Positions 1 through 3,562 are shown, numbered from the stretch's first letter. The stretch is 60,551 nucleotides of DNA from a virus (IMGVR_UViG_3300036818_000059:1-60551), one strand, 5' to 3'. The notes: a model not told the origin generated them from the sequence alone. Translations and numbers: made by a program.

Positions 1-237
1 CCACTCCACGGGCGAGTCCTCGGTGACCGGCTTGTCGGCGTCGAACCCGAAGATCCGGCACATCTGCTGGCCGGTCGGCACGTCGACGCCTTCGTCCCAG
101 CGGAACACGCGCACCACGAAGGGGTCGGCGTTCTCGTCGTACATGCGGACGAACTGGCCGGGACGGATGTGGATGGCCAGACGGTTGCGCCCGTGCTTCT
201 CCAGCAGGCCCAGGCGGCTCACGGTCGTGGTGCTCAT
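1..237 (-). CDS. Hypothetical protein, 5' part (MSTTTVSRLGLLEK...SPVEW), runs off position 1
   Basis: GGAGG RBS and ATG at 237, open high-GC3 frame to base 1; not in the ORF track. Confidence 0.75.
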   Translation of the reverse strand, partial: MSTTTVSRLGLLEKHGRNRLAIHIRPGQFVRMYDENADPFVVRVFRWDEGVDVPTGQQMCRIFGFDADKPVTEDSPVEW

Positions 238-282
238 GTGTCCTCCAAGGACGCAGGGGCGGGCGGGTGGTGGGTCAGCGGT

Positions 283-336
283 TCGGGACTCGTCAGGCCG
301 GTCACAATCCCGGCGACCGCTCACGCGGTTTCGTCC
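283..336 (-). ncRNA. Type II hammerhead ribozyme HHR1, canonical core, predicted cleavage between 315 and 314
   Basis: Minus strand reads GGAC-GAAA-CCGC(GUGA)GCGG-UC^GCCGG(GAUUGUGA)CCGGC-CUGACGA-GUCC-CGA: core CUGANGA, GAAA, GUC and three complete stems. Confidence 0.93.
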
Positions 337-348
337 AGGCGGGTGGGG

Positions 349-576
349 TCAGAGCGCACAGCCCGAGCAGAGCGGGAACACGTCGAACTTGGGGCCGTCC
401 GGCGTCTGGATCAGGAACGGCAGCGCCTCACCGCAGATCTCGCAGTGCCGCTGCACGAAGGCGAAGCCGGTGGCGTGCCGGGTCACAACGCCGAGTTCGA
501 GACCGGACAGGATCATCGGCGCGGGCAGCTCGTCGACCTCGTGGGCCATCAGTGCGGTGGTGGTTGCGGTGGTCAT
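349..576 (-). CDS. 75-aa protein with two CxxC motifs (putative zinc ribbon), flanked by hammerheads
   Basis: AAGGAG RBS; CEIC...CSGC. Confidence 0.8.
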   Translation of the reverse strand: MTTATTTALMAHEVDELPAPMILSGLELGVVTRHATGFAFVQRHCEICGEALPFLIQTPDGPKFDVFPLCSGCAL

Positions 577-593
577 CTCGGGCTCCTTGGCTG

Positions 594-647
594 TCGGTAC
601 TCATCGGCCGGGTCTCGATCCCCGGGACGCCTCGCGGCGTTTCGTCC
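594..647 (-). ncRNA. Type II hammerhead ribozyme HHR2, U4C core variant, predicted cleavage between 626 and 625
   Basis: GGAC-GAAA-CGCC(GCGA)GGCG-UC^CCGGG(GAUCGAGA)CCCGG-CCGAUGA-GUAC-CGA; same length as HHR1 with compensatory stem changes; one G.A mismatch in stem II. Confidence 0.82.
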
Positions 648-653
648 AGTGGT

Positions 654-812
654 TCAGCGGTCGTAGTCGGTGGGTTCGTCGTCGCGCGGGTCGGGCTCGC
701 GGTCCGCGCGGGCGGTGCGCTCGGCGAAGTCGGCGGCACGGATGCGCCGGCGGATCGCGGCCGCCGAGTCGGCGGGGGCGATGGCCTGGCGCCACTCCGC
801 GTTCGCGGACAT
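654..812 (-). CDS. 52-aa hypothetical protein (MSANAEWRQ...)
   Basis: TGATG coupling to the upstream ORF, high GC3. Confidence 0.6.
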   Translation of the reverse strand: MSANAEWRQAIAPADSAAAIRRRIRAADFAERTARADREPDPRDDEPTDYDR

Positions 813-913
813 CAGCGGCAGACGCACTTGTGGGTCAGCAGTCCGCACGACGGACAACGCTCGATCGGCTCGGCGATGTGGGCGGTCATCTTGGCCAGTG
901 TGGTGACGCTCAT
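812..913 (-). CDS. 33-aa Cys-rich peptide (MSVTTLAK...CPSCGLLTHKCVCR)
   Basis: GAGG RBS; first ORF after the predicted promoter. Confidence 0.55.
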   Translation of the reverse strand: MSVTTLAKMTAHIAEPIERCPSCGLLTHKCVCR

Positions 914-938
914 CGAGACTTCCTCTCGTTCTGTCTAT

Positions 939-1030
939 GCCACATAGTGTGGCATAGTGAGTTGGCCACGTCAAGTGGCTTCATTGGTGGGCCATCTTGT
1001 GAGGCAAAGCCGGACGTGACACCATGTGGC
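939..1030. promoter_or_regulatory. Divergent promoter region with four GCCAC-N5-GTGGC-type operators; leftward promoter TTGACG-17-CACACT
   Basis: Sites start at 939, 965, 991, 1016 (first two perfect, last two degenerate); -35 at 974-969. Confidence 0.7.
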
Positions 1031-1031
1031 C

Positions 1032-1220
1032 ATGACGCTGGAGGAGGCCGCGCGCGCATACCGTCGCGCCGAGAAGGTGCTTGAGGAGCGTCGAGCCGAC
1101 CTCGCGGCCGCGATCGTCGAGGCAGCCGCCTCCGGTCGCCCCCAGGTGGAGATCGTCAGGATCAGCGGGTATGCCCGCGAGCACGTGCGCCGCATCGTCC
1201 GCGCAGCCGAGTCCGACTGA
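1032..1220 (+). CDS. Small HTH regulator
   Basis: C-terminal QVEIVRISGYAREHVRRIV helix-turn-helix pattern. Confidence 0.75.
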   Translation: MTLEEAARAYRRAEKVLEERRADLAAAIVEAAASGRPQVEIVRISGYAREHVRRIVRAAESD

Positions 1221-1222
1221 CC

Positions 1223-1630
1223 TCACGCCGCACGCTCCGTCGCCTCAACGACGAGCCACAGCCGCCGCACGCGGAAGAACGAGCCGTGGCGCAGGTGGAG
1301 CACCGGCATCAGTTCGGTAACCCACGCCGCCGTGTCGTCGGGCACGACGCGCGCATCGACAAGGCCATCGACTGCTGGCTTCTGCGTGGCCGTGAGGTTG
1401 CTCGCGTCGCGGCGGATGGAGTCTCCAGGCGCGTAGTGCAGCTGGACCGTGATGTGATCCTGCGGCGGGATGCGGGCCTCCTTCGCTCGCCATGCCACTC
1501 CGGTGCGGATCGTGGCCACGTGACCCGCCTTGATGCGCCAGTGCAGCCGGTCGTTCGCGGACAGCGGCTGGAGCTTGCCCGTGGTTCCCGGCACGACGAG
1601 CGGGACGTCCAGTTCCCAGCGGGCGGTCAC
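1223..1630 (-). CDS. RusA-like Holliday junction resolvase
   Basis: D-x-x-N...K...DGL...DD motif (RRDASNL..KPAVDGLV...VPDD). Confidence 0.75.
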   Translation of the reverse strand: MTARWELDVPLVVPGTTGKLQPLSANDRLHWRIKAGHVATIRTGVAWRAKEARIPPQDHITVQLHYAPGDSIRRDASNLTATQKPAVDGLVDARVVPDDTAAWVTELMPVLHLRHGSFFRVRRLWLVVEATERAA

Positions 1631-1956
1631 TTGGACCACCTCTCGGCCGCCGCCGCGCGCTGCTCCTCGGTCATCTCTGGACTGCGCCACAGGCCGTCCC
1701 GCAGTTCCATGCCGTCGATGCCGGTCGGGTCGATGCAGGCGAAGCCGCGGCGGTGGCGATCGAACAGGCCAGCCGTCGCGAAGGTCCGGTGACAGTTGGG
1801 CGCCGTGCAGTGCGCCCGGCTGCTACCGGTCCATCGGGCGTCACAGCCCGAGCAGGTCGCGGTCTGAGTTCGCCGCTGCGGCTCGCTGGCCGGCTGGACA
1901 TCCGCTGACACCAGGGAGGCGGCGTTCGTGTCCTGGGCGCTCTCCTGGGCGGTCAT
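1627..1956 (-). CDS. FDXHR-type zinc-binding protein
   Basis: CxxC...HC..CHRTF...FDRHR. Confidence 0.7.
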   Translation of the reverse strand: MTAQESAQDTNAASLVSADVQPASEPQRRTQTATCSGCDARWTGSSRAHCTAPNCHRTFATAGLFDRHRRGFACIDPTGIDGMELRDGLWRSPEMTEEQRAAAAERWSK

Positions 1957-2612
1957 GCGGCACCACGAGACCTGCGCCGGTCGTCGCCCTTGAGCGTGAC
2001 GCGCTGGCACATCTCGACCAGCCTTGAGGCGACCCGCTCGCCGATCTCCTCGCGGAGCGACTTCACCGCCACGTTGCTCGTGATGATCGTCGGCAGCCGG
2101 TGCTCGTAGCGGTGGTTGATCAGCCGGTAGTTGACCTCCTCGGTCCACTCCGACGCCTTGGCCGCGCCGAGGTCGTCCAGCAGCAGCAAGCGGGCGCCGG
2201 CGAACCGCTCGAACTCCAGTTCGCTGTCCACCTTGGGCCGCGGCCGTAGGCAGGCGTACACGTCGGCTGCGGTGGTGGCCAGCCACGAGCAGTGCAAGCC
2301 GCTCACCGCGATCGCGCGGATGGCGCCGTAAGCCTGGTGCGTCTTGCCGGTCCCGGTCGGCCCGAGCAGTAGCAGCGACGGACCCTGCGTGACTGCGGGG
2401 ACGAAGCCACGCATCCTCTCCACCGTCTCGTCAGCCAGCGCACGCACCCACCTGGCAACTTCCGGGTTGTCCACGTTGGCATCCGCGTAGCGGGTCGGGA
2501 TGTCCTTCGCGCATCTCGCGGCACCACGCTCGATGGCCTCCGCGAGGTCGTGCCGGTCCAGGCCGCGGTCCGGGTAGGCGGCGGCGAGGTCGATCAGCTT
2601 CGGGTCAGTCAT
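1953..2612 (-). CDS. DnaC/IstB-like AAA+ helicase loader
   Basis: Walker A GPTGTGKT, Walker B LLLLDDLG, PTIITSN, RVASRL. Confidence 0.9.
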   Translation of the reverse strand: MTDPKLIDLAAAYPDRGLDRHDLAEAIERGAARCAKDIPTRYADANVDNPEVARWVRALADETVERMRGFVPAVTQGPSLLLLGPTGTGKTHQAYGAIRAIAVSGLHCSWLATTAADVYACLRPRPKVDSELEFERFAGARLLLLDDLGAAKASEWTEEVNYRLINHRYEHRLPTIITSNVAVKSLREEIGERVASRLVEMCQRVTLKGDDRRRSRGAA

Positions 2613-2614
2613 GG

Positions 2615-3562
2615 CTACAGGTCCTCGTCGTAGGCGTTCGCGTCAGTGGGGTTGCGGTAGGGCTGGTAGTCGCCTGCGGCGCGAGCCTGGACCACGGCGG
2701 ATTCCCAGCAGTCGCCCTTGAGCCAGCGTTCGGCGTCCTTGCGGAACTTCGGGTCTGGCGTCGCGGCGACGTACGGGCCGACAGCTCGGGCGATCAAGGC
2801 TGGATCGGCGCGCTTGATGGCCCTGGCCCACTCGCCTGCCGCTGTCCTCTTGGCGCCCTTGCGGCCGTAGGCGATCCAGAACGCCTCGAAGTCGGGGGTG
2901 TAGGCGGTCCTCGCGCGCTCCGCTGCCGTAGGCAGCGGGTGGCAGTTCAATGGCAGTTCTTCTAATGGCAGTTCAATGGCAGTTCTAGGGCTGCGACCAG
3001 CAGGTGTGACGCAGTCGACTGCGTCACGAACGCCGTCCGACGGCGTCACATGACGCTCTCCCACGGCGTCACTGACGCTCTCCCACGGCGTCACATCTCC
3101 ATTGGTGACGCCGTCCGACGGCGTCACATGACGCTCTCCCACGGCGTCACCGCTGATCTGTGTGACGCCGTGGGAGAGCGTCACCGCGCGGTTCTTGCGG
3201 AGCTTCGCCATCCGCTCCCGCGTCCCCTGACGCTTACGCTCCCGCCGGCCCACAGGGTCCTCGGCAGACTCCCGGCTGCGATCCATGATGAGCGCCCACA
3301 CCTCGCAGCCCGTCCCACCGAAGCGCCCTTCTGACTGGATCAGCCCGGCCGCGGCGAGCCGACCCAGGGCAGCGGAGACGGTCTTGTCGTCCAGCAGCGT
3401 GGCGTCCGCCAGTGTCGGCACCGACGGGCGCGCGCGGCCATCCTTGCCAGCCCACGTGGCCAACGCGAGCAGCACGTGGTGCGCGGTCGAGTCCGGCTTC
3501 CCGTCGGCACGTCGCACGACGGGAGCCGTCCTCGCCCACCGGATGGAGGCGAACGCGGTCAC
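2615..3562 (-). CDS. Replication initiator (N-terminal winged HTH) containing the origin
   Basis: PSVPTLADAT...TVSAALGRL HTH, C-terminal FEAFWIAY motif, internal iterons, precedes the loader. Confidence 0.8.
   Translation of the reverse strand: MTAFASIRWARTAPVVRRADGKPDSTAHHVLLALATWAGKDGRARPSVPTLADATLLDDKTVSAALGRLAAAGLIQSEGRFGGTGCEVWALIMDRSRESAEDPVGRRERKRQGTRERMAKLRKNRAVTLSHGVTQISGDAVGERHVTPSDGVTNGDVTPWESVSDAVGERHVTPSDGVRDAVDCVTPAGRSPRTAIELPLEELPLNCHPLPTAAERARTAYTPDFEAFWIAYGRKGAKRTAAGEWARAIKRADPALIARAVGPYVAATPDPKFRKDAERWLKGDCWESAVVQARAAGDYQPYRNPTDANAYDEDL
2940..3184. repeat. Replication origin: about seven quasi-palindromic 22-23 bp iterons plus AT-richer TGGCAGTTC repeats
   Basis: TGACGCTCTCCCACGGCGTCAC x3 plus one inverted copy, ACGCCGTCCGACGGCGTCAC x2, perfect palindrome 3006-3027; TGGCAGTTC x4 at 2940-2985. 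Confidence 0.75.

Follow-up and report, generated by a model that had tools for sequence, protein, structure and literature searches.

The stretch of DNA analyzed here (IMGVR_UViG_3300036818_000059:1-60551, 60,551 nucleotides (nt); hereafter the window) carries on its minus strand two hammerhead motifs in direct orientation, an upstream copy at 594..649 and a downstream copy at 284..338, which enclose one ribosome-binding site (RBS) and one complete gene for a protein of 75 amino acids (aa). Cleavage at the two predicted sites would release an RNA of 311 nt (315..625). A sequence-only reading of the window had described this layout, and its coordinates, the size of the fragment, the CxxC..CxxC gene and the replacement of U by C at core position 4 (U4C) of one copy all proved correct. 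We consider it likely that the hammerheads cut an early phage operon into linear single-gene messenger RNAs (mRNAs) with hairpins at both ends.

The enclosed gene (349..576, minus strand) starts at ATG 576, separated by a 6-nt spacer from the RBS AAGGAG (583..588), and stops at TGA 351-349. Its product carries the pairs C45xxC48 and C70xxC73 in a CxxC...CxxC/H arrangement and is predicted to be a small zinc-binding protein. The open reading frame (ORF) is a real gene, since (i) the GC content of its third codon positions (GC3) is 0.91, (ii) 9 other proteins match its product at E <= 0.001 among 1.84 billion representatives, and (iii) C45, C48 and C70 are invariant in an alignment of 7 family members, where the fourth ligand is C or H. 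The protein matches no Pfam or PHROG family. Its AlphaFold model has a mean predicted local distance difference test (pLDDT) value of 87.5; no fold in the PDB matches the model at E <= 0.001, and the top weak rows above that limit are Zn(Cys)4 domains of Fur/PerR-type regulators. A protein query found no relatives of the gene in viral contigs, and a word-based protein search returned only the gene itself. Across 301 family genomes, the gene has only two marginal matches besides that in its own genome, one of which (G129) contains three in-frame TGA codons.

In the downstream copy, stem II is a 4-base-pair (bp) helix formed by GGAC (336-333) and GUCC (289-286). The 5′ strand is followed by GAAA (332-329), stem III (CCGC/GCGG with a GUGA loop, 328-317), U316 and C315 directly before the predicted cut (C315/G314), stem I (GCCGG/CCGGC with the loop GAUUGUGA, 314-297) and the canonical core CUGACGA (296-290). 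Every conserved position of the hammerhead is present, including GAAA, the A329-U316 pair and C315.

The upstream copy has the same elements: the 5′ strand of stem II, read from the sequence as GGAC (647-644); GAAA (643-640); stem III (CGCC/GGCG with a GCGA loop, 639-628); U627 and C626 directly before the predicted cut (C626/C625); stem I (CCGGG/CCCGG with the loop GAUCGAGA, 625-608); the core CCGAUGA (607-601), in which C replaces U at position 4; and the 3′ strand of stem II, GUACC (600-596), which leaves this helix with 2 bp, an A.G mismatch and 1 bp. Apart from the C at position 4, this copy matches the conserved hammerhead core throughout, and the motif takes up all of the spacer from the preceding stop codon to the RBS that follows. 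In both copies stem III has 4 bp and a GNRA loop and stem I has 5 bp and an 8-nt loop; these two stems are loop-closed and stem II is open, as in the type II permutation. The sequences of stems I and III differ between the copies by compensatory changes.

Ribozyme class and covariation

A loose sequence pattern matched the window twice against 0.75 matches expected, and two or more matches occurred in 13 of 100 shuffles; a pattern for the type I/III permutation gave 0 matches in the window. We then used a covariance model, R1, whose seed consists of 25 hammerheads of a single length class, all from viral contigs and from outside this genome; they were drawn from the at least 141 stretches yielded by a pattern scan of such contigs. 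In the window, R1 recovered the downstream copy with 37.6 bits (E 2.9e-9) and the upstream copy with 23.5 bits (E 6.8e-5), and no other window site fell below E 0.2; in a search of the whole genome the E value of the upstream copy is 0.01. When applied to all 9.08 Mb of the assembly, R1 and a pairing descriptor agree on four sites, two of which are the window copies, 311 nt apart. On the plus strand, Twister-P5 gave a match (15.7 bits, E 2.3) that overlaps the complement of a hammerhead and was dismissed as chance.

Pairing was evaluated in viral contigs, where 132 of 147 unique matches to the sequence-only pattern, among the matches listed, form both hairpins, compared with 14 of 2940 shuffled controls. 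In the 25 sequences of the R1 seed, 13 of the 16 pairs change on both sides, which none of 500 shuffles equalled; the seed had been pre-filtered for pairing, and its 100% pairing is partly built in. Judged by their sequences, the two window motifs are genuine type II hammerhead ribozymes.

Aligned by structure, 29 distinct copies from actinobacteria and actinophages define a subclass with CUGGAC...GUCCC around stem II and a 5-bp stem I. Loop I of this subclass is a conserved 8-mer, RANNGWGA, found in the window (297-314 and 608-625) and in the relatives. Tandem G.A pairs closing a tetraloop are possible in this loop.

Cores with C at position 4 recur in viral contigs: both hairpins are formed by 22 of 58 unique C4 pattern matches and by only 2 of 1160 shuffles, and many C4 sites score 30–62 bits with R1. 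A C4 copy is present in 10 of 68 pairs of neighbouring hammerheads. C4 cores with intact helices were also seen among the phage-contig loci L143-L226, some of them mutual neighbours (L148/L150, L188/L189). Since such cores recur in hammerheads that are otherwise intact, the exchange suggests a tuned rather than a broken variant in phage hammerheads.

Proposed processing of the operon and possible fates of the 311-nt fragment

In the mechanism that we propose, the operon would be transcribed, and each ribozyme would fold and cut itself after C17, leaving the polycistronic RNA in pieces. The middle piece would be a linear 311-nt single-gene mRNA for the 75-aa, probably zinc-binding, protein. Because the open stem is stem II, as in type II hammerheads, the products start and end at hairpins: each downstream product would begin at the stem I hairpin with a 5′-OH, and each upstream product would end 2 nt past the stem III hairpin with a 2′,3′-cyclic phosphate. 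These termini correspond to the known chemistry of hammerhead cleavage and are expected here on C625 and C315, respectively; the 311-nt piece would thus begin at C625 directly with the stem I hairpin and finish at C315 with the stem III hairpin followed by UC. The hairpin-capped ends could uncouple the stability and translation of neighbouring genes. A slow upstream cut would leave a share of the transcripts in which the two genes upstream remain joined to the 75-aa gene.

We infer that cleavage occurs in vivo, that the ends have this chemistry and that RNA stability is affected. Hairpins at a 5′ terminus can stabilise RNA, and RNase J acts on 5′-OH ends, as in the glmS case; it is on this earlier work that a stabilising role of the hairpin ends would be based. 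The sequence-only reading had mentioned, as a fallback, that the ends only tune mRNA stability, and this is the interpretation that we favor.

A number of points weigh against this interpretation. First, at the Rfam gathering score the window has 0 matches: against the RF02276 threshold of 37 bits, the downstream copy scores 20.1 bits (E 0.35) and the upstream copy 15.9 bits (E 4.4). At the same score, RF02276 found nothing in 14 control genomes either. Second, type II hammerheads usually make their tertiary contact through a pseudoknot in which loop I pairs with nucleotides 3′ of stem II; inspection by eye revealed no evident pseudoknot of this kind and no shared pairing of at least 4 bp in the subclass, which probably explains the low Rfam scores. 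Third, nearest-neighbour folding of the downstream motif alone did not return the hammerhead fold. Fourth, a scan with the sigma-70 consensus found no promoter upstream of the operon. Fifth, a 5′-OH could equally mark a product for decay. Finally, the upstream copy has the lowest score of its subclass in the structural alignment set, where only two copies in the array of a related genome, at 20.8 bits, lie below its 23.5 bits, and it departs twice from the subclass consensus, by U4C and by GUACC in place of GUCCC. Given these two departures, the upstream ribozyme may be inactive.

The last point leads to an alternative in which only the downstream hammerhead is active and the upstream copy is a decaying relic. 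No 311-nt unit would then arise, and the cut at C315 would separate a three-gene 5′ mRNA (33, 52 and 75 aa) from the genes that follow. Besides the low score and the departures from consensus, this alternative draws on the report that U4C "considerably decreases" activity in vitro (Perreault 2011, PMC3088659, as far as the available part of that paper goes), and on the closest relative of the upstream copy, L209, which is 87% identical and shares U4C yet has a perfect GUCCC strand. A relic is nevertheless hard to reconcile with stems I and III that are intact and compensatory with respect to the downstream copy, with a motif that still spans the entire spacer from stop codon to RBS, and with the recurrence of U4C in otherwise perfect phage hammerheads and in neighbouring pairs. 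Natural hammerheads, moreover, function with a 2-bp or even a 1-bp stem II, and a viroid U4C hammerhead, as cited in the same paper, is less active in vitro and sufficient in vivo (Perreault 2011, PMC3088659, same part). We therefore regard the relic as unlikely and the upstream ribozyme as likely to be active; given U4C and the stem II mismatch, it is probably slower than its downstream partner.

Two hammerheads around a single gene are a common layout in phages. A megablast search of window positions 1-3000 against phages gave no match, and a distant search of the first kilobase against a phage database gave only the downstream hammerhead, matched in Saccharomonospora phage PIS 136. In that phage, two hammerheads, to which the downstream copy is 81–84% identical, flank one unrelated gene of 110 aa (PIS_068), and their stem I and III sequences differ and still pair by compensatory changes. 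Among the matches listed for viral contigs, there are 67 adjacent pairs of hammerheads, mostly with one ORF between them; the 50 unique adjacent pairs measured in 80 viral loci are 224–1610 nt apart (21 of them less than 400 nt), a single ORF of at least 40 aa lies between 37 of these 50, and the hammerheads are all on one strand in 79 of 79 viral loci with hits. R1 matches were also found in 10 of 151 genomes of the host's family. The related genome G077 contains a one-strand array of at least seven hammerheads in 5 kb (C1:4252419-4257358; L241, L243-L248), and laxer filters give more copies. Two hammerheads of this array are only 128 nt apart, too close for a gene.

Other members of the subclass are unpaired. 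These are the two remaining copies in the genome of the window (G000, contigs C156, L228:1501-1555, and C102, L229:1501-1555) and copies in the genomes of six relatives (L235, L236, L237, L239, L240 and L242). Immediately ahead of each is a homologous gene of about 120 aa (116–126 aa) without a Pfam family; tests at 9 other loci recovered its product in 7. The conserved single positions imply that this class of hammerhead works without a partner. At L228 and L229 the ~120-aa gene stands beside a gene for a GntR-family regulator, at L228 a divergent GntR-HD regulator, and the ~120-aa gene with its single hammerhead resembles a conserved operon belonging to some other mobile element.

The layout with paired hammerheads is itself already known, and the pair in the window joins a published arrangement. 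According to the available part of Perreault 2011 (PMC3088659), hammerheads that occur in multiples in prophages often lie on either side of a single gene or a short block of genes, the identities of the flanked genes are not constant, three such arrays cleaved in vitro, and the arrays imply processing of long phage transcripts into single-gene mRNAs. A review, likewise available in part, describes phage hammerheads that flank small non-conserved ORFs and calls their biological role still open (de la Pena 2017, PMC6155905). Our literature search on phage hammerheads, circles and actinophages found nothing beyond these two texts and no later paper that settles the role; the search did not cover the supplements of the 2011 paper, which may list similar actinobacterial copies or U4C variants.

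The sequence-only reading had proposed another fate for the 311-nt fragment, namely that its ends are joined into a translatable circular mRNA. Two routes to ligation can be envisaged: a host ligase, or reversal of a chimeric hammerhead that combines stem I and the U4C core of the upstream copy with stem III of the downstream one. Rejoining the ends would give the junction ...GCGGUC|CCGGGG... and, as that reading held, a ribozyme with the upstream U4C core. As both stem II 5′ strands are identical (CUGGAC), base pairing in the chimeric ribozyme would be exactly that of the upstream copy, and a circle would retain the RBS and the whole ORF. Hammerhead ends are substrates of RtcB, and retrozyme circles form in this way (PMC7229834, seen in part). 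An enzymatic route is also conceivable through two host homologues of 2H-phosphoesterases ("2′-5′ RNA ligase") that lie above the Pfam cut-off.

Against ligation by the host stands the lack of any RtcB (PF01139) match in the 95%-complete assembly, in a search whose control was positive in 10 of 14 known genomes; the sole RNA_ligase match is sub-threshold (25.6 bits against a cut-off of 27). The phage itself has no recognisable RtcB or reverse transcriptase, as the sequence-only reading had stated and as the PHROG annotation of its 65 ORFs bears out. Circular or spliced products from hammerhead arrays were considered by Perreault 2011 (PMC3088659, available part) and none was detected ("data not shown").

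A comparison of stem II within neighbouring pairs bears on ligation by a rebuilt hammerhead. In the 67 pairs among the matches listed, 121 of the 134 ribozymes have a 4-bp stem II of their own. Where the two members differ in stem II (24 pairs among the matches listed), the chimeric stem would reach 4 bp in only 4 pairs and would otherwise have 3 bp (2 pairs), 2 bp (3 pairs) or 1 bp (15 pairs); of the 48 stems II that these ribozymes form by themselves, 35 retain 4 bp. The other 43 pairs share GGAC/GUCC in both copies; the search pattern required GGAC/GUCC of at least one member. As own stems are kept and chimeric stems are not, compensatory change works inside single ribozymes and not across a pair, and selection maintains each ribozyme and not the rebuilt junction. 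In the window, the rebuilt stem II would consist of 2 bp, a mismatch and 1 bp, formed across about 250 nt.

The fragment also lacks the properties of a stable or endlessly translated circle. Each of 100 shuffled versions of the 311-nt RNA gives a more stable fold than the RNA itself (z = +2.34), and folding it as a circle gains nothing (-106.1 versus -110.6 kcal/mol); in this the fragment differs from viroid-like and retrozyme circles. An endless coding frame was found in 0 of 68 fragments between hammerheads; the one stop-free frame (1 of 68) was rejected as non-coding, with a GC3 of 0.57, whereas the coding frame of that fragment has a GC3 of 0.86 and three stops. Most hammerheads of the subclass in related genomes are, finally, unpaired. 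In view of the missing RtcB, the chimeric stem II that is not kept, the lack of a rod-like fold and the published arrays without circles, the proposal of a circular coding RNA is not supported. Beyond geometry nothing speaks for a circle, which is unsupported rather than disproved, and we consider it very unlikely.

The more specific version, in which the fragment becomes a circular, ribosome-loadable mRNA during infection through chimeric U4C ligation or an enzyme other than RtcB, for example of the 2H family, has in our estimate a slighter chance still. If true, a small phage protein would be made from an exonuclease-proof template, and the RNA would be the first natural ribozyme-made coding circular RNA (circRNA) in a bacterium. 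The comparison of own and chimeric stem II is a cheap computational test, and it speaks against circularisation by a rebuilt hammerhead as a selected function.

A further alternative holds that the motifs matter mainly as DNA: as 56-bp boundaries of a mobile cassette of ribozyme, RBS and small gene, exchanged between phages by recombination, with RNA cleavage incidental. The enclosed genes do differ between phages (the 75-aa orphan and the 110-aa PIS_068), in keeping with the inconstant gene identities in the accessible part of Perreault 2011 (PMC3088659), and the two copies form a 56-nt direct repeat with 75% identity. However, covariation preserves the RNA helices while the stem sequences drift, which argues for selection on RNA and not on DNA repeats, and homologous recombination would work poorly on 56 bp with 75% identity. 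A near-repeat of 13 nt (12 of 13 identical) directly abuts the upstream ribozyme on its 5′ side (649-661) and recurs a few nt beyond the 3′ side of the downstream ribozyme (270-282). It brackets the whole ribozyme-gene-ribozyme unit and could be read as a cassette border, but two other repeats at chance level within these 561 nt are just as good, and it may itself be due to chance. We hold a primary role as DNA to be highly improbable; exchange of cassettes would also be compatible with RNA processing.

Phage and operon context

The window is a whole contig (C11) of a 287-contig assembly and has a 23-nt terminal direct repeat, which indicates a circular assembly; to judge by this repeat, the contig is a circularly closed, complete phage genome of about 60.56 kb. 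PHROG matches include an integrase, repressor, anti-repressor, annealing protein, replication initiator, DnaC-like loader and RusA, as well as a terminase, portal, protease, capsid, tape measure and holin. By its gene content, the phage is classed as temperate and siphovirus-like; its host is a high-GC actinobacterium, a soil bacterium. A search for sequencing runs that match the locus listed no RNA run and a single DNA run, with a 0.12 share of words.

Both ribozymes belong to a minus-strand operon whose small genes encode proteins of 33, 52 and 75 aa and are followed by a gene running across the contig junction; the operon is situated just past RusA, next to the replication module. The first two genes (913..812, 33 aa; 812..654, 52 aa; both minus strand) have no Pfam or PHROG family matches, and the stop codon of the second, TGA 656-654, is 5 nt ahead of the upstream hammerhead match. 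The gene after the downstream hammerhead (1..237, minus strand; RBS GGAGGA 246-241, ATG 237) crosses the junction of the circular contig, its frame continuing into the 23-nt terminal repeat. By eye, its RBS lies in a small hairpin, GUCC-UUGGA-GGAC (240-252, minus strand), the arms of which have the same sequences as the strands of ribozyme stem II, and an alternative pairing is conceivable.

The operon is divergent from a plus-strand helix-turn-helix (HTH) gene of 64 aa (1026-1220; HTH_28 match, E 5.1e-5), and the control region between the two (914..1025) would contain the operon promoter. A perfect 10-bp inverted repeat, CTATGCCACA tag TGTGGCATAG, was read from the sequence of this gap at 925-947; it may be the operator of the 64-aa HTH protein.

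Comparison with known systems

Retrozymes are eukaryotic, non-autonomous retroelements whose hammerheads, of type III in plants and type I in animals, are embedded in longer direct repeats; the inserts are non-coding and highly self-paired, and the elements need a tRNA ligase or RtcB and the reverse transcriptase of a retrotransposon. The locus in the window resembles retrozymes in that two hammerheads in direct orientation would cut out a unit-length RNA with 5′-OH and cyclic phosphate ends, and in that the two halves could rebuild one hammerhead. It differs from them in its type II hammerheads, in a protein-coding insert that folds less stably than shuffles, in its setting in the operon of a DNA phage, and in having as its only repeat the 56-nt ribozyme itself (75% identity). 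No reverse-transcriptase or RNA-ligase PHROG annotation was found among the 65 phage ORFs at E <= 1e-5, and no RtcB in the assembly; primer-binding and polypurine sites were not part of the search. The label "retrozyme-like", which the sequence-only reading had given to the layout, consequently fails with respect to the hammerhead type, the non-coding insert and the structured RNA.

In RiboJ-type insulators and in circRNA vectors based on twister or hammerhead ribozymes, the ribozymes set the mRNA ends independently of promoter and neighbours, and the circularising vectors add long complementary ligation stems and require RtcB. The terminal hairpin and the 5′-OH and cyclic phosphate ends predicted here are shared with such engineered units. 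Unlike the circRNA vectors, the locus in the window offers no more than a four-position stem II, one position of it mismatched, to keep the ends together, and the search for RtcB was negative.

The U4C core links the upstream copy to the viroid hammerhead cited in Perreault 2011 (PMC3088659, available part), which has the same substitution; that ribozyme is of type III, whereas the window copy and the 22 unique phage U4C copies are, from sequence alone, phage hammerheads of type II.

The closest parallel in kind is provided by the clustered hammerheads of phages and prophages. Like those described in the available parts of PMC3088659 and PMC6155905, the window copies are of type II, occupy intergenic spacers on the strand of the genes and bracket a single small non-conserved ORF. 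In comparison with the clusters in the available part of PMC3088659, the window copies stand out by a 5-bp stem I, the RANNGWGA loop, CUGGAC...GUCCC around stem II and the lack of an evident loop I pseudoknot, and they score below the Rfam threshold, one of them with a U4C core. A complete temperate actinophage thus carries two hammerheads that the Rfam threshold misses, which places them within routine annotation of a common phage arrangement. An actinobacterial and actinophage subclass escapes the curated model, and ribozymes have therefore probably been missed in the annotation of phage genomes from high-GC hosts.

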